Source: a virus. From it: a stretch of DNA of 64,000 nt. Shown one piece after another: positions 1 through 52,190 of the stretch. Every line of letters starts with the position of its first letter. The first letter of the stretch is position 1. Both the position numbers and the translations under genes were made by a program. The notes beneath the pieces were generated by a model. That model ran no database searches and had not been told where the DNA came from. It worked only from the letters and a program-made list of their open reading frames with translations. Where the stretch lies: positions 4,792 through 68,791 of IMG/VR virus record IMGVR_UViG_3300010373_000007. One strand, written 5' to 3'.

Positions 1-2985
1 GTTGTAGATCTGGATCTCCTGCAACGACGTGACGCCCACGGGCGTCGTCCCGTTGAAGGTCAGGTGCGCGTCGTCGGTGAGCTGACCGCCGGTGCTACCG
101 AACGGGACCCGATGCTGCGTCGCCGCGAAGACGCTGATCGTATCGGGCGTCCCGACAGCGACACCGAGCATCCCGCTGCCCCCGCCGTAGGACATTGTGG
201 TGGGCGACGCGCCCGACGCGCCGGTGTTCGCGACGAAGCTGTGCGCGGCGATGGATCCGATCTGGGAGAGGGTGAGCCCGGAGATGGTCGACACGTTCGA
301 TCCGGCCGAGATGCTGAGCCCCCCACCGCTGATAGTCGCGCGCTGGAGGCCGCCTCCCCCGTTCAGCGTGATCGTGGCGTTGTCGATCTTCGTCCCGATG
401 GTGACGGCGCCGGCACTAGCCGAGACAGTCGACGGGTCCGTCGCGGCGAGGCTGGTGACGCCACCACCACCGGTTCCCGTGCAGTCAAGCACTCCACCCG
501 ATAGGGAGCAGTGAGGTCCGATTGTTATCTCCGATGGCGCCGCCGGAGACGCCCCCGAGTTACCGAGAATCGTCCCGTTGGTCTCGTTCTGGATCTTGGC
601 GTAGGTGACGGACGACGATGAATACGCTGCGGTCGCCAGTGTGCCGCACCCAAGCGTTGATCCACTCTCGCGATAGGCGCACCCGCTGGCCGCCGTCGCC
701 TGGATGTCCGCTACATTCCCGGTGCTGTTGGCGCTGCGCCCGAGGATAGCGAGCGGTCCGCTCTGACGGATCTTCGCGTTAGAGATGCCGTTGTCCGCGA
801 CTTGGACGCCGCCGCCGCCGCCCTGGTTGAGCGTCACGCCGTCGAGGTTGACGTCCACGTTCGGGTTCCCGGAGGCGCCAGTCCCATTCGTCACCACGAT
901 CGATGAGCCAGAGCTTGTCAGCGTGCGCGCGGACGTCGTCCCGGACGAGGTACGGACCACGATTCCATTGCTGCCCGGGTCCGCTAGGAATGCGTCGAAG
1001 CTCTTATATGCCCCTCCGTTCTCGCTGTATTGCAAGACGCCCGCGAGGTTCCTGAGCCTGGCATTGCCACTGGCCGAAACGGCTGACGTGCTCGGCCAGA
1101 GCTCAAAGCCACCATCTGCCCTGATAGTGATCTGCTTCTGGACCAGCGATCCTCCGTTGACGTTCAGAAATGTAACGTCTCCATGGAACGCAACGGGGTC
1201 AGAAGAATTGATCATCTGAAAAACGGCGTCGCCGCCCGGCCCGGCCCCGGCAGCACTCTCGCCGAACATCGTCATCAACATCGATGACTGCGCGTGGTTG
1301 GTGAGCTGGATCCCGGCGTTCCCGGCAGGGTTCGCGTCGTACACCCCAATCCGAGCCTGCTGACTGTTCGCGGAACTGTCGTTCGAGACTGCCAAGGGGA
1401 AAAGGCCGAGAGCGGCGCCACTCACGTTCCCAATTGCCGATTGACTCGCGCCAATTCGAAACCCGTACAGACCCACGTATAACCCAGTCCCGGTTGTCAG
1501 CGTCGCCTGCGAAGCAACAGTGACTCCGTCAGACCCCCAGTTTCCGCCGGCCGTGAAGGAACCGGATCCACCGACGCTGATACCGGTGTTCTGGCTCGCA
1601 TTGGTCGCCCGGTTGACGCTGAGGCCCGTCGCTCGAATTCGGAGAGGGACCGTCCCGTTGACGGCGTACTTGTCCGTCACGCCCGCGTTGGCCATGTCGA
1701 CGAAGACGTCCCCCGCGATGTTCCCAGCCCCCGGCGTCGTGCCCTGGGAGACGTGCGTCCCGAGCACCGCGGTCTCCAGATAGGTCGCCCCGTCGTACCA
1801 CTGCCAGGCCAGGCGCCCGCCGTAGTTGGTATTCGCCACGATCGTCGGAGACGCGAAGCTGCCCTGTGACTTCTGGAGCGTGACGCGGGGCCCGCTGTCG
1901 CTGGTCGCGTAGGTCCCGACGCCAACGCCGCGGTCCGTCGCCGCCGCCTGGTCGACGAGATGGAGCTGGAATGCCGCCGCAGAGGTTCGCAGGCCAATGC
2001 GGGCGTTGCTGACATCGACCGAGAACTTCGTAGGATCGTCAGTGAGAGTTCCGGTTGAACTGAAGTAGGCAACACCGTTCGCCGTCCCCGTAACCGAACC
2101 GCCCGGAACGAACTGCCAGACGAGCGCCGTCCCGGCGGAATTCACCATCAGCGATTGCCCGGCTGCCCCGCCGCCCAGATAAGCCGGGACCGCGCTCGCG
2201 TTGGTGGCGTTCGCAAGCACCGAGAGCGAGCCCGCGGCACCAAAAGCGGTCGTCCAGGTCCCTCCCGCCGTGGTGATGGCGCCGGAAAGTACCGGGGCGT
2301 TGGCAGCGGCCACGGCCCCCGTTACGCTCGCGCCCGCGGCGAGATTGACGCCCGGATTGGGATACGTCCCCGTGAGCGCACCGCCGGCAGCGCCCGACGG
2401 AGGCAGGGACGACGGCGTGCCGGTCAACTGCGAGTAATCAAGGACGTGAAAGGCGAGTGCCGTCCCCGTGTCCATTAAGACCTGGCCCGATGTTGTCGCG
2501 GTGGCCAGGGTGAGCGCGGCGGAGCTTGTTCCGACGTTCGCGTAGATCGAGAGACCGACCACGGGCGTCCAGGCCGACGCAGCGCTCCCGGTCGGCACGT
2601 CGATGACGCCCGTGATGTGGAGGCGCTGGAGGTTGCCGCCAGTCGTGCCGATCGTGACGCCGTCGGTCCCGGCGATCGCCGGCGGCGCGCATGCCCACGC
2701 ACCCGAGAGGCGCACCGGGACATCGCCGTCGGCCGAGCACGCGACGTCGGTCAGGAGGCCGGCCCCGTTCGCCGCCGGGAAGCTGAGCGCGGCGTGCCCG
2801 GTGTTGATCACGGGGGCGCCCGCGAACGACGGCGACGGCGACGGGAGGTTCTTCAGGTAGCAGGGCGTCCCGATCGGGCACCCCGCGGCGTCCTGCGGGT
2901 GGCTCCAGAGCTGCGGGGTCTGGGCGCGCGCCGGCGCGGCCGCCAGGAACGCGACCAGGAGGGCTACGACTCGGGCCTTCCCCAT
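1..2985 (-). CDS. Large secreted Gly/Ser/Thr/Ala-rich repeat protein, tail-fibre- or adhesin-like; C-terminus lies beyond window start
   Basis: Minus frame is open from ATG 2985 to base 1 (995 codons). It is missing from the ORF track only because no stop lies in the window, and no other ORF in that frame is listed. N-terminus MGKARVVALLVAFLAAAPARA/QTP looks like a Sec signal peptide. Body has recurring ...LTDDxxxF... and ...AKIxxxxxxxLG... segments. Confidence 0.7.
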   Translation of the reverse strand, partial: MGKARVVALLVAFLAAAPARAQTPQLWSHPQDAAGCPIGTPCYLKNLPSPSPSFAGAPVINTGHAALSFPAANGAGLLTDVACSADGDVPVRLSGAWACAPPAIAGTDGVTIGTTGGNLQRLHITGVIDVPTGSAASAWTPVVGLSIYANVGTSSAALTLATATTSGQVLMDTGTALAFHVLDYSQLTGTPSSLPPSGAAGGALTGTYPNPGVNLAAGASVTGAVAAANAPVLSGAITTAGGTWTTAFGAAGSLSVLANATNASAVPAYLGGGAAGQSLMVNSAGTALVWQFVPGGSVTGTANGVAYFSSTGTLTDDPTKFSVDVSNARIGLRTSAAAFQLHLVDQAAATDRGVGVGTYATSDSGPRVTLQKSQGSFASPTIVANTNYGGRLAWQWYDGATYLETAVLGTHVSQGTTPGAGNIAGDVFVDMANAGVTDKYAVNGTVPLRIRATGLSVNRATNASQNTGISVGGSGSFTAGGNWGSDGVTVASQATLTTGTGLYVGLYGFRIGASQSAIGNVSGAALGLFPLAVSNDSSANSQQARIGVYDANPAGNAGIQLTNHAQSSMLMTMFGESAAGAGPGGDAVFQMINSSDPVAFHGDVTFLNVNGGSLVQKQITIRADGGFELWPSTSAVSASGNARLRNLAGVLQYSENGGAYKSFDAFLADPGSNGIVVRTSSGTTSARTLTSSGSSIVVTNGTGASGNPNVDVNLDGVTLNQGGGGGVQVADNGISNAKIRQSGPLAILGRSANSTGNVADIQATAASGCAYRESGSTLGCGTLATAAYSSSSVTYAKIQNETNGTILGNSGASPAAPSEITIGPHCSLSGGVLDCTGTGGGGVTSLAATDPSTVSASAGAVTIGTKIDNATITLNGGGGLQRATISGGGLSISAGSNVSTISGLTLSQIGSIAAHSFVANTGASGASPTTMSYGGGSGMLGVAVGTPDTISVFAATQHRVPFGSTGGQLTDDAHLTFNGTTPVGVTSLQEIQIYN

Positions 2986-3041
2986 GCCAAGGATGGTAGA
3001 GCGTCGCCCCTCCCGTGTCACGCCGGGCGTAGTATCGGCTC

Positions 3042-3545
3042 ATGCCGCAGACGACCGAGGAGAAGCTGTTCCCGCCCGACATGACGGACGATCAGGTGGC
3101 GGACGTGCTGATGGAGGAGATCCCGGCCGCCATCCGGATCGCGGTCGGCCAACCGCTGCGCGCCTTGTTCAAGATGGCGATCCTTCGCGAGCGCGGGCGA
3201 TGCTGCTTGCTCGCCGACCGGGCCGCCCGCCACCATCAGGCGGAGGCCATGCGGATCGACCACGCCCTCCCCGGCCTGACGCCGGGTACTCCCGCCCTCG
3301 GATCGGCGATCGCCGCCCAGCGCGCCCACGCGGCGATGGCCGGCGCGGCGGCGGGGATGGCGGTGGTGATGCGGCGCGCTCCCGGCGCCTGCGCGCGCTG
3401 CCGCGGGACCCGCCTCGTACCTGGGACCTTGGCCGGCCCGGACGGTCAACCGGTCGCCGTGCCCTGCCCGAACTGCCCGCCCGCGGCGCCGGACGCCTCC
3501 GTCTCGGAACTTCCGCCGGGCGCCCCCGCGGCCTCCGAGAGCTGA
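3042..3545 (+). CDS. Hypothetical protein with CxxC...CxxC zinc-ribbon-like C-terminal part
   Basis: 167-aa ORF with almost every third codon position G/C. Contains CARCRGT...CPNC. Divergent from the 1..2985 gene. Its last 100 nt overlap the convergent ORF 3446..4027, so one 3' end is uncertain. Confidence 0.55.
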   Translation: MPQTTEEKLFPPDMTDDQVADVLMEEIPAAIRIAVGQPLRALFKMAILRERGRCCLLADRAARHHQAEAMRIDHALPGLTPGTPALGSAIAAQRAHAAMAGAAAGMAVVMRRAPGACARCRGTRLVPGTLAGPDGQPVAVPCPNCPPAAPDASVSELPPGAPAASES

Positions 3546-4027
3546 TCCTCCGCCCCCGCCACCACGTCCCGCGCCGCCGCGATCGTGGGCGTGATCCGGA
3601 GGTCGAACTGGGCCCGGCGCCCGATGTACCCCTGGCGGCGCAGCTCCCGCCGGGTCTTCCGGCGCACCCGCACCTGGAGGTCCTCCATGTCGGCCCCCAT
3701 CCCCTCCAGGATGGCCCCGCAGAGCCTCGACAGGTCGTCCTCGTCCCGCAGGGCCGCCCGCTCCGCCGCCCGCGCGCCCAGGGCCTCGGAGAAGGCCGGA
3801 GACGCCGCCAGGGCGGTCGCGGCGCGCATCCGGTCCCGGAGGCCCGTCCTGACCAGCTCCTCCTCGCTGGCGCGGCGCAGGGCGGATTCGGGGGTCTCGG
3901 GCGGGAGGGCGCGGGCGGCGAGCCAGGTCACGTACAGGCGTGCGGGATCGGATAACGCGGCTGGTTGTTGTTCCACGTGGAGACAGTCTCGCACGCCCGC
4001 GCCGGGACCGGCGTAAGGTTTCGACAT
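3446..4027 (-). CDS. Hypothetical protein
   Basis: Internal ATG (MSKPYAGPG...) of track ORF 3446..4108. Downstream sequence is protein-like (EEELVRTGLRDRMRAATALAASPAFSEALGARAAERAALRDEDDLSRL...). No family recognised. Confidence 0.5.
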   Translation of the reverse strand: MSKPYAGPGAGVRDCLHVEQQPAALSDPARLYVTWLAARALPPETPESALRRASEEELVRTGLRDRMRAATALAASPAFSEALGARAAERAALRDEDDLSRLCGAILEGMGADMEDLQVRVRRKTRRELRRQGYIGRRAQFDLRITPTIAAARDVVAGAEDQLSEAAGAPGGSSETEASGAAGGQFGQGTATG

Positions 4028-41399: not shown

Positions 41400-42056
41400 T
41401 CAGGGGCTCTTGATGTACGGCGCGCCGGCGGGGACCAGGGCGGCGAAGGTGCGGAGCGAGGCGAGGTCGCCGTTCCAGACGTCCAGGTCGACGTTGCCGC
41501 CGATCCCTGGCTCCCGCCCGGTCTGCGAGTACTGCCACATCGCCCAACTCTTGCCGGCGGCAAGCCAGGGCGCGGGGACAAGCGGCTCCTGGTCGCCCGA
41601 GTCGTAGCGCGGCAGGAACAGCGCGATCTTGTCGGCCAGGTCCCACGTCGCCGGGTACTGATTTCCGACCCAGTAGCCGTTCGACGTGTAGAGGCAGGGC
41701 TGGCGGTCCGGGACATCGGCCAGGAGCTGGTCGAAGAACTCGTCCAGGTAGTCGAACGGCACGACGCTGGAGCGCTCGGTGTCGAGCGTGATCCGCTCGT
41801 TCGGGTAGAGCGGGCCCACCAGGTCCAGAACCCGCTTCGCCTGCCCGCGCGCGTCGCCGATCCCGGCCACGTGGTAGTACCAGACCAGCTCGAAGCCCAT
41901 CGAGCGGGCGCCGGCGATGTCGGCCGCCAGGGCGGGGTCGGTGTTCGTCTCGCCCTGGGATGTCTTGATCCCGACGAAGTCGACGGCGCGCCTGAGGGCG
42001 ACCCAGTCGCGCGGGGGATTCCAGTGGGAGACGTCGCAGCCCCGCGCTCGATCCAT
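41400..42056 (-). CDS. GH25 muramidase (endolysin)
   Basis: 218 aa. GCDVSHWN...VDFVGIKTSQGE... and ...WAMWQYSQTGREPGIGGNVDLDVWNG are GH25 hallmarks. Confidence 0.85.
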   Translation of the reverse strand: MDRARGCDVSHWNPPRDWVALRRAVDFVGIKTSQGETNTDPALAADIAGARSMGFELVWYYHVAGIGDARGQAKRVLDLVGPLYPNERITLDTERSSVVPFDYLDEFFDQLLADVPDRQPCLYTSNGYWVGNQYPATWDLADKIALFLPRYDSGDQEPLVPAPWLAAGKSWAMWQYSQTGREPGIGGNVDLDVWNGDLASLRTFAALVPAGAPYIKSP

Positions 42057-47062: not shown

Positions 47063-47367
47063 CAGAGATCCACCTCGTTCGTGCGAACTTTCCCGCCCTG
47101 CGCCTCGAACCACGGAACCAGCTTGCCGCGGAAGCAGTCGGGACAGATGTCGAGGATGGTCTGGTTGATGGTCCCGCCCTCGGGATAGATGTCGCCCTCT
47201 TCCATGCCGACGTGGACCTCCATTTTTTCGTACATGCCCTGGCTGTAGTCGCCCCCGACGGGGTAATCCTCGCCGCGCCCGCGGCGCCCACACAGCTCGC
47301 AGACCACAGCCGCCACACGCCGGACGGTGCTCGCCGGCACCTCGACCGTCTTGTGCTCAATCGCCAT
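47062..47367 (-). CDS. Small zinc-ribbon protein
   Basis: 101 aa, CELCG...CPDC. Confidence 0.5.
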   Translation of the reverse strand: MAIEHKTVEVPASTVRRVAAVVCELCGRRGRGEDYPVGGDYSQGMYEKMEVHVGMEEGDIYPEGGTINQTILDICPDCFRGKLVPWFEAQGGKVRTNEVDL

Positions 47368-47933
47368 CAGCGCACCGCCCCGGTCGTCACGCCGTCAGTC
47401 TTGGGGGCCACCTCGGGCAGCTCCGCGGGCGTCTCGGTGGTCGCCGTGGCCGTCCGGTCGTCGTCCCCCGAGTCGACGATCTGGGCGTGGCCGAAGTCGG
47501 TCGTGGCGTGAACGGGAGCTGTCCATGTCGACGGCCCGGCGGCCAGCGTCCCGACCGTCTCGACCTGCGGCGCCGCCGCGCGCGCCGCGCACCCGGCGCC
47601 CAAGAAGGCCGCCAGGGCGAGTGTCATCACCGCCCCGAGGACCGCGCGCGCCCAGCGCGGCAGGTCCGGCGCGCCCGCGCAGCGGTGCCCGAACACCAGC
47701 GCCTTCATCCCCATCGGCTCCAGGCAATTCCCGCAGGCCCGGTAGACGACGTCGGTGGTCTTGAGGTCGTCCTCGTGCTCCTCGGTGGCCAGGAGCACCT
47801 CCAGGCACCAGGACGGCCAGTCGTGGTGGCGGCCGGCGGTACCATTGAGGATCATCTCCGGGACCACCGTGCCGGCCGCCGTTCGGCCCGACCAAAGCAG
47901 CCCCACCAACCTCGCGCGCGTCGTTTCAGTCAT
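47367..47933 (-). CDS. Hypothetical protein with one predicted membrane span
   Basis: 188 aa. ATG preceded by GAGGAGG. Hydrophobic AVLGAVMTLALAAFLGAG. Confidence 0.55.
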   Translation of the reverse strand: MTETTRARLVGLLWSGRTAAGTVVPEMILNGTAGRHHDWPSWCLEVLLATEEHEDDLKTTDVVYRACGNCLEPMGMKALVFGHRCAGAPDLPRWARAVLGAVMTLALAAFLGAGCAARAAAPQVETVGTLAAGPSTWTAPVHATTDFGHAQIVDSGDDDRTATATTETPAELPEVAPKTDGVTTGAVR

Positions 47934-48181: not shown

Positions 48182-48922
48182 TCACTTGACGACCTCGAAC
48201 GAGAGCGCCCAGACCATCGGGTTGTCCCGGAACGACTGCTCCCCGTTGAGGACCTTCCAGAGCGCGAAGAAGGCGCCGCGCGCGGTCGGCTCGGCAACGC
48301 CATCGCGGTCGCTCCGCCAGCCATCGTCGCCCGGGATCATCCCCTCGGCGCGCGCGTCCTCCTCGCTGATCTCGGTGAGGCGCTGGGCGCGGACCTCGGT
48401 GATCTTGAGCGTCAGGCGCGACGCCCAGCGCGGAAGGAAGATGCCGGGGCGCCACTTTCGATCGGCCGCCTTCTGGTCGATGGCGAAGTTGCTCGGCTCG
48501 CTCAACGTCGACCAGGTATCGCTCAGCCGGCCCGCCCACTCGGATGGGATCGTCTCACACAGCCGTCGCGAATCATCGGCTCGGTACCGAATGAACGGAT
48601 AACCGTCCTCGGTCCAATCGGCGTACTGCCAGGCTTCGCGGACCCAAAGGTGGTCGCCGATACGAATCCTCGACCAAGCCACTAGTCCGCGCGGCCACGG
48701 CATGATCCGCGTTCCCTTCCAGGCCCACCCGATCTGCTTCTCGTCCCCTGCTTCTTCCGGTAACAATCCAGCGCCAGCGCACGCCTTGAGCGTATCGAAC
48801 GCAGTCTGGTCCATGATCGACTGCTCGGGCTGGGGATTCAGCAGCCGCCGCGTCTGGGTCTTTCGGCCCGTGAGGATGGCTCGGATCATTGGAGGCGAAA
48901 ACAGGATCGGCCGCTCGGTCAT
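48182..48922 (-). CDS. ASCH-like (PUA-fold) phage protein
   Basis: ATG 48922 in an ATGA overlap, 246 aa. MTERPILFSPPMIRAILTGRKTQTRR is the typical N-terminus of this prophage family. Confidence 0.6.
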   Translation of the reverse strand: MTERPILFSPPMIRAILTGRKTQTRRLLNPQPEQSIMDQTAFDTLKACAGAGLLPEEAGDEKQIGWAWKGTRIMPWPRGLVAWSRIRIGDHLWVREAWQYADWTEDGYPFIRYRADDSRRLCETIPSEWAGRLSDTWSTLSEPSNFAIDQKAADRKWRPGIFLPRWASRLTLKITEVRAQRLTEISEEDARAEGMIPGDDGWRSDRDGVAEPTARGAFFALWKVLNGEQSFRDNPMVWALSFEVVK

Positions 48923-49797
48923 CGTGGGAATTCCCTGATGCGGATGTCCTCCGGCCACTCGGCCATGTCGCCGCCGTGATTTGGATCCTTCTCCAGCCGG
49001 AGGCGGTTCAAGCCCTCGGCGTGCCTCGCGTTGACCCCGAGTTGCTTCCAGAACGGGTGCACGCCGTCCCGGCGCATCGCGCGCGTCAAGGCGCGGCCCC
49101 AGTCCAGAACGAACGGGCGCGCGCCCGCCCCGCTCTCACCGCCGATGATTCCCCAGTGGATATCGCGGAGATCGACCGACTCATGGATCGGTCCGATCAG
49201 CGGCTCGAACGACGCGAACCGAACAATCGCCGGGATCTGCCGCAGGATCGGGATCCGAGATGTCGCTGCCTCGTCTTCGACCGTCGTCCCGATCCAGACG
49301 TTCGGCCACGGGTCGCAGCCGCGCCCACCATCCGCGATGTCGCAGAAGTCCTCGCCGCAGCAAACCCCGTCGCGCATCGACGCCTTGCAGGTGACGTTCC
49401 CGCATCCTTCGGGCGTCCACGGGAGCATCCGCGCGACGTTCTCCGGCCGCTTGGTGAGCAGCATCCAGTCGAGGTTCGGCGTCGCCAGGATGAGGCGCCA
49501 GAGGCGCTCGCGCTCGACCAGGAGGTCGACGCGGTCCTCGAACACGTCCGCCATCGACGCGCAGAACACACGCTGGCGTCGACCCTCGCCGCCGGCCTTG
49601 GCGTTCCACTTGAGCGGCTCCCGCCAGTGGTTCTCGCCGAAGAACCGGCGCGGCGCGCGCGGCCCCCAGTCGGCGCGCCCTAGGCGCTTGTCGAACGCCT
49701 CCGCGTAGCAGTGTTCGCAGCCCTTCGACACGCGCTGGCAGCCCCACCACGGGTTGAACGTCGAATCGGCCCAAGCGATCTTGGTCTCGGCTCCCAT
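48919..49797 (-). CDS. Phage Gp37/Gp68 family protein (DUF5131)
   Basis: KIAWADSTFNPWWGCQRVSKGCEHCYAE is the family signature. An extra Cys-rich insert follows (CGNVTC...CCGEDFC). Confidence 0.8.
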   Translation of the reverse strand: MGAETKIAWADSTFNPWWGCQRVSKGCEHCYAEAFDKRLGRADWGPRAPRRFFGENHWREPLKWNAKAGGEGRRQRVFCASMADVFEDRVDLLVERERLWRLILATPNLDWMLLTKRPENVARMLPWTPEGCGNVTCKASMRDGVCCGEDFCDIADGGRGCDPWPNVWIGTTVEDEAATSRIPILRQIPAIVRFASFEPLIGPIHESVDLRDIHWGIIGGESGAGARPFVLDWGRALTRAMRRDGVHPFWKQLGVNARHAEGLNRLRLEKDPNHGGDMAEWPEDIRIREFPR

Positions 49798-49803
49798 CCC
49801 GGG

Positions 49804-49813
49804 AGATTACGCC
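49804..49813 (-). promoter_or_regulatory. GGCGTAATCT box
   Basis: GGCGTAATCTCCCGGG-ATG(49797). No SD. Confidence 0.45.
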
Positions 49814-49826
49814 GGGCCGGCGACGG

Positions 49827-50144
49827 TCAGCGCTGGCAGCCGGGCGTGCCGGGATCGGCGCAGCGCACCCCCGGGCAGTCGGCGGCCGCCACCAGGCGCG
49901 CGGCGTACGCCTGCCCGATGCGGTGGCAGTCGGCGGTCAGGTCGGCCTGGATGACGGCGGGGCAGACGGCGTGCGCGTGCGCGGCGGCGGCCTCGCAGGT
50001 CACGGAGGCCGGCGGGGGCGGGGAGGCGTCGGCGTCCGGGGACGGGTTCACGGGGGGCTTTGGCGCGGGGCAGGCGAGCGACAGGAACGCGCAGGCGGCG
50101 CCCCCGAGGGCCCATAGGAGGACGCGCTGTCGGAAGCCGCGCAT
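49827..50144 (-). CDS. Cys-rich lipoprotein
   Basis: ATG 50144 in a TGATG overlap, 105 aa. MRGFRQRVLLWALGGAACAFLSLAC lipobox. Confidence 0.6.
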   Translation of the reverse strand: MRGFRQRVLLWALGGAACAFLSLACPAPKPPVNPSPDADASPPPPASVTCEAAAAHAHAVCPAVIQADLTADCHRIGQAYAARLVAAADCPGVRCADPGTPGCQR

Positions 50145-50917
50145 CAGGCCACCGCCGCCAGGAACCCATCGTAGGCCGGCACGAGGTCGCCCGCGGGGGT
50201 TTTGCCCTTCGGCGCCCAGATGCCGTTCGCCAGGAGCGCCCACGCCTCGTCGTTGTAGGCCGCCATGAAGTCGTTCGTCAGGCGCACCCGGACGCCCCAG
50301 GTGACGACGAGGAAGCCGTCGGCGTCGTACGCCTCGATCACGACGCAGTGGCCGCCCAGGCTGCCGGGCTCGGCATCGGCACCAGCGGTGGGGTCGTAGG
50401 ACCACGTCGCACCGTCGCCCTCGCCCTGCGCCTCAATGGTGCGCGGGAGCGACAGGCCGATGTAGCAGCCGCCGAAGGTGTTCACGATCTGGCGGATCTC
50501 GCCGAGGTTCTGGGCCTGCGCCGAGGCGAAGCCATCGATCTTGAACCCGCCGCAGCCGATCCCCTTGAGGTAGGTCAGGACCTCGGCCTCGACGCCCCCC
50601 TGGTCGGTCGAAGGATCCGCCGGGTTGTAGCCGGTCGACCCCTCGTAGAGCTTGAGGATGTCGTCGTCCGAGATCGTGACCTCGGATCCGTTCGCGGAGG
50701 TCGCCGCCTGGACCCAGTGCCCGAACCCGGCCGCCGTGCAGTCGCCGAGGCGGTCGTTCCCCATCACGCCGGCGGGGAAGGCCATCCCGGTCGTCCAGTC
50801 GCGCGCGTCCGGCGCCGGTGGGAGCGACGCCACGAGCTGGCGCGCCGCCATCCGGTGGGCCAGCGAGACCGGCCGCGGGGCAGCTTTCCCGAGGCGATGT
50901 CCGCCAGCGGTGGTCAT
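50144..50917 (-). CDS. Papain-like cysteine peptidase candidate
   Basis: ATG 50917 in an ATGA overlap, 257 aa. GNDRLGDCTAAG (Cys), GGHCVVIEAYD (His) and VVTWG parallel the papain CGSCW/HAV..VGY/NSWG order. Confidence 0.5.
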   Translation of the reverse strand: MTTAGGHRLGKAAPRPVSLAHRMAARQLVASLPPAPDARDWTTGMAFPAGVMGNDRLGDCTAAGFGHWVQAATSANGSEVTISDDDILKLYEGSTGYNPADPSTDQGGVEAEVLTYLKGIGCGGFKIDGFASAQAQNLGEIRQIVNTFGGCYIGLSLPRTIEAQGEGDGATWSYDPTAGADAEPGSLGGHCVVIEAYDADGFLVVTWGVRVRLTNDFMAAYNDEAWALLANGIWAPKGKTPAGDLVPAYDGFLAAVA

Positions 50918-51531
50918 CGCGCCGCCCAAGTCAGGCGCCCGCCGACGATCCGCCCGCACAGACAATCCGCGCCGGGGGAGCCGATGGCGTCAGGGCCGCC
51001 GCAGGACGCCTCGCAGCGCGCCTGCGCCGCCGCGACGGTCTCACCCGCGTAGGCGAAGTCGACCCCGGCCGGCACCCGTGGGGCTCCTCCGGCCGGGGTA
51101 CCCGGTTGGCCCGGCTCGCCCTCGGCGTTTTTTTGGAAGTCTTTCTCCAGCGACGGCGGGCAGATCAGCGACTGGTGGATCTGCCGAACCACCCCGACCG
51201 CGTGCGCCCGACCGCGGAGCTGTGCGGAGGCCGACGGGTTGCCCTCGATCTTGGCGATGATGCAGTCGATCGTCGCCTTGCCATCGGGCCCCAGCACCGC
51301 CTCCAGGTTCCGCAGCTCGTCGAGCGCGCAGACGGGGGCGGCGGCGGGGTCGAAGTTCGGGTCGCACTGGAGGGCGATGATGACCATGTCCCCCAGCTCG
51401 GTCGCCGTTCCCGTCCAGGTGATCTTCCCGATCTCGGGCTTCACGCAATCGGCGTAGATGCTTCCACAGCCTGGAATCGCCATGAAGGCGGAGAGGAGGG
51501 CGAGCAGGGCGGGCATCGTGAGGCGCTTCAT
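50914..51531 (-). CDS. Cys-rich lipoprotein
   Basis: ATG 51531 in an ATGA overlap, 205 aa. MKRLTMPALLALLSAFMAIPGC lipobox. Confidence 0.65.
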   Translation of the reverse strand: MKRLTMPALLALLSAFMAIPGCGSIYADCVKPEIGKITWTGTATELGDMVIIALQCDPNFDPAAAPVCALDELRNLEAVLGPDGKATIDCIIAKIEGNPSASAQLRGRAHAVGVVRQIHQSLICPPSLEKDFQKNAEGEPGQPGTPAGGAPRVPAGVDFAYAGETVAAAQARCEASCGGPDAIGSPGADCLCGRIVGGRLTWAAR

Positions 51532-51749
51532 TTGGTCACTCCGGCGTCGGGTTTCTTGGTCATCGTGCTCGGGTTGTCGCCCCAGTCGTTCGGCGGTGCC
51601 GGGCAGCCGGGCGTGCGCGGGTCCATGCAGGGGCACGGCTTGAGCACCGGGTCGCCCTGGCAAGACGGGTCGGCGGGCTGGTCGAACAGGTGACATCCGC
51701 CGGCCAGGAGCGCCAGCATCCCGATCGCGAGTCCCGTCTTGACCCTCAC
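51528..51749 (-). CDS. Small Cys-rich lipoprotein
   Basis: GTG 51749, 73 aa. (M)RVKTGLAIGMLALLAGGC lipobox. Confidence 0.5.
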   Translation of the reverse strand: MRVKTGLAIGMLALLAGGCHLFDQPADPSCQGDPVLKPCPCMDPRTPGCPAPPNDWGDNPSTMTKKPDAGVTK

Positions 51750-51781: not shown

Positions 51782-52174
51782 TCAAGCGTCGGTCTCGGGC
51801 CGGTCCTCGACGTCGGCCTGGTAGTCCTTCTTCTCCAGGGTCCGCTCGCCAAGTTTCTCGTCCGTCTCGGCGTCGTGGATCGCCGCGATGCCGTGTCCGA
51901 AGTCCTTCAATTCGTAAACCTGGCACTCCTGCTCGGTCGTCCCCTCGCGAATGTCCTGCTTCAACTTCCGCTTGTCAGCGCGCAGGGCGGTAATCTTCTC
52001 CTTGGCGGGCTTGAGCGTCTCGGTCAGGGCGTCGATCTGAAGCTCCGCCTCGGCGAGGCGCATCTTCCGCGCCGCGGTCTCGTCGGCGTCGATCGGGACG
52101 CGAACAAGCTTCGGGAAAATTCCGGTGCGGACGACTTCACTGGACTTCGCAGTCTCTGGCATGCTTGCCTCCAT
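51782..52174 (-). CDS. Hypothetical coiled-coil protein
   Basis: 130 aa. Start follows a GGCGTAATCT box by 9 nt. Confidence 0.55.
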   Translation of the reverse strand: MEASMPETAKSSEVVRTGIFPKLVRVPIDADETAARKMRLAEAELQIDALTETLKPAKEKITALRADKRKLKQDIREGTTEQECQVYELKDFGHGIAAIHDAETDEKLGERTLEKKDYQADVEDRPETDA

Positions 52175-52180
52175 CGGCAG

Positions 52181-52190
52181 AGATTACGCC
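52181..52190 (-). promoter_or_regulatory. GGCGTAATCT box
   Basis: TAG-GGCGTAATCTCTGCCG-ATG(52174). No SD. Confidence 0.45.

Follow-up and report, generated by a model that had tools for sequence, protein, structure and literature searches.

A predicted papain-fold peptidase encoded among three cysteine-rich lipoproteins: a candidate lysis-associated envelope module in a soil phage

The window analysed in this study is a stretch of 64,000 nucleotides, bases 4792-68791 of IMG/VR record IMGVR_UViG_3300010373_000007, a complete soil phage of 68,791 bp with direct terminal repeats. Its minus strand carries a block of four overlapping genes which encode, in 5′ to 3′ order on that strand, lipoprotein A, lipoprotein B, a predicted papain-fold cysteine peptidase (C) and lipoprotein D. 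We read this block as a lysis-associated envelope module, at a probability of roughly 0.55, in which C would be a second lysin beside the GH25 muramidase of the phage, and A, B and D would be envelope partners positioned in advance. The reading draws on domain fusions and gene cassettes of C relatives in other phages, and on the recurrence of lipoprotein genes beside C across its family. The four genes are as follows.

51528 to 51749, minus strand: lipoprotein A, GTG start, 73 aa, signal ending ...LLAGGC
50914 to 51531, minus strand: lipoprotein B, 205 aa, signal ending ...AIPGC
50144 to 50917, minus strand: peptidase C, 257 aa, no export signal
49827 to 50144, minus strand: lipoprotein D, 105 aa, signal ending ...LSLAC

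Validity of the four overlapping genes

The first-pass annotation, made from the sequence without database searches, had described four translationally coupled open reading frames (ORFs), three of them for lipoproteins. All four translate with the lengths and lipoboxes given there, and the overlaps were confirmed as ATGA at the A/B and B/C junctions and TGATG at the C/D junction. Third-position GC is 0.88-0.95 in A, B, C and D, as expected for real genes at 69% GC; the GC content of the genome is approximately 69%, and almost every gene lies on the minus strand. As the lipobox cysteine and several other cysteines are kept in relatives, A, B and D were regarded as real genes rather than GC-driven ORFs. 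In the source's own gene call, D apparently has a length of only 58 aa (P0274, which covers 55% of D at 100% identity); the signal peptide and lipobox, being conserved in relatives, support the 105-aa call.

Predicted fold and family of C

C is predicted to adopt the two-lobed papain fold, with a helical L domain and a beta-barrel R domain (AlphaFold, AF2; predicted local distance difference test score, pLDDT, 92.2; predicted template modelling score, pTM, 0.90). Foldseek placed xylellain first among the structures similar to this model (7e-9, probability 1.00), followed by procathepsins, including procathepsin K, and propapain. VIA-align gave a Z score of 19.9 for xylellain, with a root-mean-square deviation of 2.8 Å over 207 residues, and Z scores of 15-17 for many C1 zymogens (procathepsins, propapain), with coverage of residues 1-232. 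The papain-like fold that the first-pass annotation had proposed from the order of Cys, His and TWG motifs is thereby borne out by structure prediction. Since the alignment starts at residue 1 with zymogens and only from approximately residue 35 with mature enzymes, residues 1-34 look like a short pro-segment in the model, as in xylellain, for which a short pro-segment was described by Leite et al. 2013, as cited in PMC10380794.

In an alignment of 40 C members, N54, C60, H67, D105, S186, H190, W207, G208 and E224 were invariant, as were L9 and G10. The two residues sought in a C1A peptidase, a catalytic Cys (C60) at the start of the central helix and a second-lobe His (H190), were thus found in the 40 relatives, aligned to the xylellain motifs. 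In a profile search of Protein Data Bank (PDB) sequences with C, the Cys motif and the GGH...WG motif aligned with those of xylellain, weakly (E 0.07). C generated no Pfam match at E <= 1 and no match in NCBIfam, while PF00112 was present on 20% of the members of one related Atlas cluster. Because the oxyanion Gln and the Asn of the N-S-W-G motif both differ in C (see Discussion), we call it C1-like rather than C1A; on its predicted model, C is a xylellain-type, C1-like member of the papain clan and not a proven C1A member.

In PHROGs, C matched phrog_19005 alone (8e-38), the function of which is left blank there. An exhaustive search gave 4,137 representative clusters (50% identity clusters) at E <= 0.001 and 2,576 at E <= 1e-10, and the Atlas clusters of the family are 52-81% viral. 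The N-terminus of C is not hydrophobic (hydropathy over 15 aa reaches at most 0.52), in agreement with its description as signal-less in the first-pass annotation. C contains four cysteines with no papain-type disulfide pattern. The contrast between the many cysteines of A, B and D and the four of C would fit exported partners and an enzyme folded in the cytoplasm. Two C relatives, P0206 and P0219, contain an intein (Intein_splicing; LAGLIDADG); that of P0206 lies just before the catalytic-Cys motif, a site of the kind typically occupied by inteins in important enzymes.

Domain fusions of C relatives

The domain organization of the family was surveyed in its best 150 representatives. Stand-alone proteins of approximately 250 aa accounted for 110 of these, and the others carried a C-terminal (24/150) or an N-terminal (16/150) extension. 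Fusion to cell-wall hydrolase domains, a property of lysins, was found in several of them. P0154 combines Phage_lysozyme and Lipase_3 with the C domain, P0236 combines a Pesticin-type lysozyme with C, and the three proteins P0164, P0157 and P0174 combine an Rv2525c-like glycosidase with C, both orders of the two domains occurring. Export-type extensions were also present, namely a lipoprotein signal in P0178, a Sec signal in P0229 and transmembrane (TM) helices in P0155. The catalytic residues are intact in every fused form. At the level of sequence, these fusions suggest that the C family is tied to the envelope or to lysis.

Large fusions of several domains, among them the lysozyme-lipase-C protein of 750 aa, look like tail-associated lysins, and several C homologues lie directly after tail-fibre or tail-spike genes. 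Both features would suit a virion-associated entry enzyme, packaged or ejected with the virion, that digests the wall on infection while the lipoproteins protect the infected cell. For the present phage we consider this very improbable, as C is small, stand-alone (like the 110 representatives above) and located outside the structural module, and as a position after the tail-fibre genes is also classical for lysis cassettes.

Lysis cassettes in related phages and the position of the muramidase gene

C was found in a lysis-cassette context in L035, L045, L084, MW202816, L038 and L039. In L035, overlapping genes encode, in this order, a multi-TM protein ending in a B-like domain, C, a D homologue and a GH25 protein 41% identical to that of this phage; the D homologue is an 89-aa Cys-rich lipoprotein (hhalign 96.8%, E 3e-10). 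The order in L045 is a multi-TM protein with a B-like domain, a B-like lipoprotein, C, a 125-aa ORF and GH25. The distance between the GH25 homologue and C is approximately 0.4-0.6 kb in these two loci. L084, the closest relative, encodes a C protein of 66% identity, and its GH25 gene, the product of which is 63% identical to that of this phage, is located approximately 2 kb past D. MW202816 encodes, one after the other, a holin-like protein with 3 TM segments, a lipoprotein of 122 aa, an N-acetylmuramoyl-L-alanine amidase and the C homologue. Lysozyme or lipase genes adjoin C in L038, L039 and L078. In L056 the module immediately precedes the large terminase gene, and in two other loci the small terminase gene is the next gene; a terminase-proximal position is classical for lysis cassettes. 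These contiguous cassettes suggest, from gene order, that the C family is tied to lysis.

This context was not found in the phage studied here, the sole recognisable endolysin of which is encoded at some distance from the module.

41400 to 42056, minus strand: GH25 muramidase (endolysin), phrog_291 (2e-21), Pfam Glyco_hydro_25 (6e-15)

The first-pass annotation had placed the only recognisable endolysin about 8 kb off, had seen no adjoining holin and had concluded that the combination matches no standard lysis cassette. The GH25 gene is indeed 7.8 kb away and has no gene for a TM protein beside it, no TM gene is adjacent to the module either, and the conclusion is correct for this phage; the relatives trace much of the mismatch to 7.8 kb of accessory genes. 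The interval between GH25 and D holds a DUF5131 gene, several unannotated ORFs, and genes for a regulator-like protein and a methyltransferase. As relatives keep the module and GH25 close to each other, the gap is not counted against a role in lysis. Judging from these gene orders, the module and the muramidase gene would formerly have been adjacent or nearly so, and the 7.8-kb gap is best read as an insertion of accessory genes.

Properties of lipoproteins A, B and D

TM segments and lipoboxes were called with simple hydropathy and regular-expression detectors, not with trained predictors. A, B and D each start with a basic n-region and a hydrophobic core followed by a Cys after a small residue, and Asp at position +2 is absent from all three. 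The many extra cysteines noted in the first-pass annotation amount to 4 in A, 9 in B and 6 in D in the mature protein beyond the lipobox, and the lipobox Cys and several of the others are conserved in relatives. Lipoprotein-type signals number six in the 68.8 kb of the genome (both strands), three of which are inside the 1.9-kb block; this clustering far exceeds chance.

Mature A has 55 aa, of which 22% are Pro, and carries a conserved C-terminal GDNPS-M-K..D-G motif. Its homologues number 5 in 2.9 million viral contigs, all on module-bearing contigs, and A was never seen without C. Mature B, of 184 aa, is predicted to consist of an N-terminal four-helix bundle (pLDDT 83-92), a variable disordered linker and a 4-Cys helix-hairpin C-terminal mini-domain, with an overall pLDDT of 70 for the model; its N-domain is the part fused to the multi-TM proteins of L035 and L045. 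Mature D, of 81 aa with 17% Pro, has an invariant Cys-Pro after the cleavage site, a Pro-rich linker and a 6-Cys domain of approximately 55 aa. Among 5.8 billion proteins, B had four relatives and D had one. The Atlas gave no lead for B, and a sequence search of A, B and D against solved structures gave nothing meaningful. A, B, C and D generated no match in Pfam, NCBIfam or PADLOC, and the PHROGs match of C was the only one in that database; for PADLOC, no match at E <= 0.01 was found for A, B, C, D or the upstream orf130 (see below).

Besides the window, L005/L006, L016, L018 and L056 carry all four genes A-B-C-D as a block, and partial blocks are present on the short contigs L083 and L084. 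A D homologue follows C in L005, L016, L018, L056, L083, L084 and L035. The block has been kept while C diverged to approximately 42% identity. In a quickly built maximum-likelihood tree of C, one clade of five and a nearby pair comprised the module-bearing proteins, which on this sequence tree could have a single origin.

A, B and D were also considered as the only lipoproteins of the phage, and this was rejected, as three further signals were found. One is in orf188 (window 47367-47933, minus strand). The N-terminal half of its product contains Cys and His residues and is succeeded by a hydrophobic stretch that ends ...FLGAGC, and the product has no family match; translation from an internal Met (47714) would yield a fourth precursor of the lipoprotein type, 74 aa long when mature. 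The other two are ORFs in the 4.8 kb beyond the window (locus L088), in the distal tail region at genome positions ~1-367 and 2759-3718 (minus strand), with mature parts of approximately 98 and 298 aa. The phage is thus unusually lipoprotein-rich.

Lipoprotein genes beside C across the family

In 69 non-redundant loci, lipoprotein-type signals were counted in the 1.3 kb upstream and the 0.7 kb downstream of C. Upstream of C there were 0.23 signals per kb and downstream 0.215; for the remainder of the same strand the figure was 0.022 per kb, and for the opposite strand 0.009 per kb. When called genes were considered, a lipoprotein signal was present in 8/46 genes at the -1 position and in 4/616 other genes (Fisher p = 1e-7). 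Lipoprotein genes are approximately 10-fold enriched beside C across the family. As 11 of the loci with an upstream lipoprotein hit carry no A, B or D homologue, unrelated lipoproteins fill the same position there. In cultured Komagataeibacter phages, which have a Gram-negative host, the C gene shares its end with an overlapping lipoprotein gene, and slightly upstream there is a gene for a lipoprotein with a Tat-type signal.

Such an arrangement might also be expected of an effector and its immunity proteins, with C as a lytic peptidase and A, B and/or D as periplasmic inhibitors that neutralise premature or external peptidase, as in lysis from without or attack by a superinfecting relative. 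Here the genes for exported, disulfide-rich lipoproteins lie on both sides of that for a signal-less papain-clan peptidase, stop codons overlapping start codons, the replacement of lipoproteins by unrelated ones in the same position resembles the behaviour of fast-evolving immunity genes, and A is strictly linked to C. Amidase-immunity lipoprotein pairs of type VI secretion systems, and T4 spackle acting against gp5 lysozyme, would be analogues. We nevertheless hold this reading to be unlikely, if the first to turn to after the lysis module: no similarity of A, B and D to known inhibitor or immunity families was found, three inhibitors for one enzyme would be unusual, and the occurrence of the B domain on multi-TM, holin-like proteins in relatives fits lysis control better.

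The linkage of the lipoproteins to C bears also on superinfection exclusion or receptor masking, one of the roles listed in the first-pass annotation, in which the lipoproteins would act like T5 Llp or phi80 Cor and C would be an unrelated cytoplasmic protease sharing the operon. The lipoproteins are small, Cys-containing and of the outer-leaflet type (no Asp at +2), the module lies amid non-structural accessory genes, and the homologue in the Komagataeibacter phages is near integrase and toxin-antitoxin genes. Against this, the lipoproteins co-vary with C and not with tail-fibre genes, and GH25/amidase cassettes, muramidase fusions and export signals are hard to square with a cytoplasmic target. 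The proposal gained no support from PADLOC or PHROGs, where no match of this kind was found, and we regard it as improbable.

Two further features of the neighbours were observed. Twin-arginine (Tat-type) signals occur on unrelated lipoproteins beside C in L034, L047, L061, L075 and the Komagataeibacter phages phiKX2/phiKM1 (L094 4497-5072, L002 1037-1645). Co-export of the signal-less C with a partner by the Tat pathway was considered on this account; as a consistent RR motif is missing from A, B and D, it is kept only as a variant of a less likely scheme (see Discussion). A recurrent family of 165-320 aa with no annotation is encoded beside C in nine other phages (loci listed: L007, L008, L047, L052, L054, L057, L076); in its members a hydrophobic segment is followed by a lipobox-type Cys, and they also have a long helical region that is hydrophobic and a C-terminal tail that is basic.

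Transcription unit and genomic surroundings

The block appears to belong to a longer unit bounded by two copies of a promoter-like box.

52181 to 52190, minus strand: GGCGTAATCT, promoter-like box, 6 nt before the ATG of a 130-aa ORF (reads box-CTGCCG-ATG); probable start of the unit
51782 to 52174, minus strand: orf130, called from ORF and third-position GC; acidic, helical product of 130 aa
49804 to 49813, minus strand: next copy of the GGCGTAATCT box, 6 nt before the ATG of the DUF5131 gene (ATG at 49797); marks the end of the unit

The window contains GGCGTAATCT as an exact match 6 times, where 0.09 occurrences would be expected. As such boxes precede orf130 and the DUF5131 gene, the transcription unit is probably orf130-A-B-C-D, with orf130 as its first gene. 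This is the one correction to the first-pass annotation, which had described four coupled genes; the transcription unit probably takes in the upstream 130-aa ORF as well. The orf130 product has no TM segment and no signal (maximum hydropathy 0.48), and its sole match was a weak one to phrog_12688. In L005 and L016 homologues of orf130 occur 5′ of the module, separated from it by a gene for a 564-635-aa protein, and the linkage of orf130 to the module is loose.

The positions of the GGCGTAAYCT box are 49804-49813 and 52181-52190 (minus strand) and, in addition, 26649, 35150, 43715 and 59996. At orf130 and DUF5131 the box ends exactly 6 nt before the ATG, which is the geometry of the TANNNT -10 element driving leaderless transcripts. 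The box may point to the host or to a sigma-like factor of the phage's own. The DUF5131 protein, encoded directly 3′ of the module (window 48919-49797, minus strand), matched the PADLOC candidate defence components PDC-M41B (1e-46) and PDC-M30B (2e-45).

The direct terminal repeats and the completeness of the record indicate a free phage genome and not a prophage. The closest cultured phages are distant, with identities of <=30% for the large terminase subunit (TerL) and <=35% for the GH25 endolysin. No close prophage was found in two genome scans, the best result being a 36% match in Acetobacter papayae. A metagenome scan yielded 3 loci, and no tRNA genes were found in the phage.

Discussion

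In the lysis reading, C would be made in the cytoplasm as a two-domain papain-fold cysteine peptidase with a short pro-segment and no export signal, while A, B and D would be exported and lipid-anchored beforehand, their disulfides stabilising them outside the cytoplasm. After the cytoplasmic membrane is breached, C would reach the wall and cut peptidoglycan peptides or wall-linked proteins alongside GH25. On the periplasmic side, A, B and D might position or time the peptidase, or deal with the outer layer. A catalytic function of C on the envelope is what we infer from the sequence relationships described above; its substrate, the need for a holin, activation through the pro-segment and what A, B and D each do are placed in this scheme in the same manner. 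The TM-fused relatives of B suggest, by sequence, a role at the inner-membrane face, perhaps in timing, and A and D look like outer-side lipoproteins.

A more elaborate form of this scheme, in which the lipoproteins and C constitute a spanin-independent last step of lysis, is doubtful, and we rank it just behind the effector-immunity arrangement. Here B on the inner side, and A and D on the outer side, would capture and activate the zymogen-like C, which would then sever protein tethers between the wall and the outer layer. The arrangement also raises the possibility of a variant in which a partner lipoprotein carries the signal-less C across the membrane, allowing export independent of a holin.

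Several observations weigh against assigning the module to lysis. In C itself, the oxyanion Gln is replaced by an invariant Asn (N54), with the same spacing (six before C60) and a similar amide, and the column of papain Asn175 is hydrophobic, the motif being [V/I]-T-W-G instead of N-S-W-G; a different third catalytic residue, for instance the invariant E224, might serve here. The characterised cysteine-peptidase domains of lysins are all of the small CHAP or NlpC/P60 type and not of the two-domain C1 type (PMC10318531; bioRxiv 10.1101/2025.01.22.634383). B had no informative structural match, with only generic helical bundles recovered (Foldseek E > 0.2; best VIA-align Z 7.8). At the level of gene context, a recognisable lysin is near C in a minority of loci, most neighbours being unannotated (59 loci). 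In the present phage the module sits amid replication and accessory genes, neither a TM nor a holin gene adjoins it, and GH25 is 7.8 kb off. Finally, neither TerL and GH25 comparisons nor the two genome scans yielded a host, and hence an envelope type.

Should the assignment to lysis be true, thousands of phage genes would be annotated by it (>4,000 clusters at 50% identity), and a full papain-type C1-like domain would join the endolysin toolbox, the cysteine peptidases of which have so far been small CHAP and NlpC/P60 domains only. The recurrent pairing with unrelated lipoproteins suggests an undescribed envelope-side step or control in lysis, and bears on how phages without recognisable spanins pass the outer layer. 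If the tether-severing scheme were true, phages would have, in addition to spanins and disruptin, a third means of disrupting the outer envelope, one based on a protease. Laboratory strains offer a straightforward setting for tests of the enzyme and its partners.

Comparison with known systems

The lipoproteins of the module resemble T5 Llp and phi80 Cor in being small phage lipoproteins with disulfides. Unlike those, A, B and D track the peptidase and are not linked to genes for receptor binding, and there is no sequence similarity.

A and D also resemble o-spanins such as Rz1 of the lambda Rz/Rz1 pair, as they are small, Pro-rich, Cys-containing lipoproteins encoded by overlapping genes in a lysis-type context; neither has Asp at +2. 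In contrast to Rz/Rz1, the lipoproteins are three in number, one of them is a two-domain protein of 184 aa, they are encoded on both sides of the enzyme, and a TM-anchored coiled-coil i-spanin is missing. An i-spanin, with an N-terminal TM segment and a coiled coil, was sought in the unit and not found: orf130 has no TM segment, B is a lipid-anchored helical bundle, and the unit contains no TM gene. A unimolecular spanin (u-spanin) like T1 gp11 was not found either, as A, B and D are hydrophobic only in the signal peptide and have no C-terminal TM segment. Canonical spanin readings were rejected on these two grounds. Thus, of the roles put forward in the first-pass annotation, a second lysin or an envelope-disruption system was strengthened by the fusions and contiguous cassettes, while its spanin-like form was not sustained.

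The T4 holin T and antiholin RI, the latter with a periplasmic domain controlling when lysis occurs, offer an analogy for B, since in L035 and L045 the cassette starts with a gene for a multi-TM protein whose extracytoplasmic end is a disulfide-bearing B-like domain, reminiscent of a holin equipped with a regulatory domain in the periplasm. It would be an analogy only, as no sequence or fold relationship between the two systems was found and the domain is lipid-anchored here and not TM-anchored.

For C, the closest known protein is xylellain of Xylella fastidiosa (PDB 3ois), a short bacterial C1A peptidase. C resembles it in its small size, in the motifs around Cys and His, in the two domains of its predicted papain fold and in a pro-region at the N-terminus, which aligns with the zymogen part. 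Short xylellain-type C1A peptidases have been acquired by tailed phages, with no role assigned (PMC10380794). C differs from xylellain in its low identity to it (approximately 14-16%), in having no Pfam Peptidase_C1 match, and in the Asn in place of the oxyanion Gln and the loss of Asn at papain position 175; moreover, the phage family has muramidase fusions and lipoprotein neighbours, which are not described for xylellain.

With modular endolysins, such as LysA of mycobacteriophage D29, which joins a C40 peptidase to GH19, and the CHAP lysins, the C family would share the principle of a Cys-His peptidase working with a muramidase, as C relatives are fused to lysozyme-type domains. The N4 domain of D29 is a cysteine peptidase with a papain-like core inside an endolysin (bioRxiv 10.1101/2025.01.22.634383). 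The peptidase domains known from such endolysins are single-lobed, of the NlpC/P60 or CHAP type, whereas C is predicted to be a full two-lobed C1-type enzyme with a pro-segment, and is encoded by a separate gene far from that of the muramidase.

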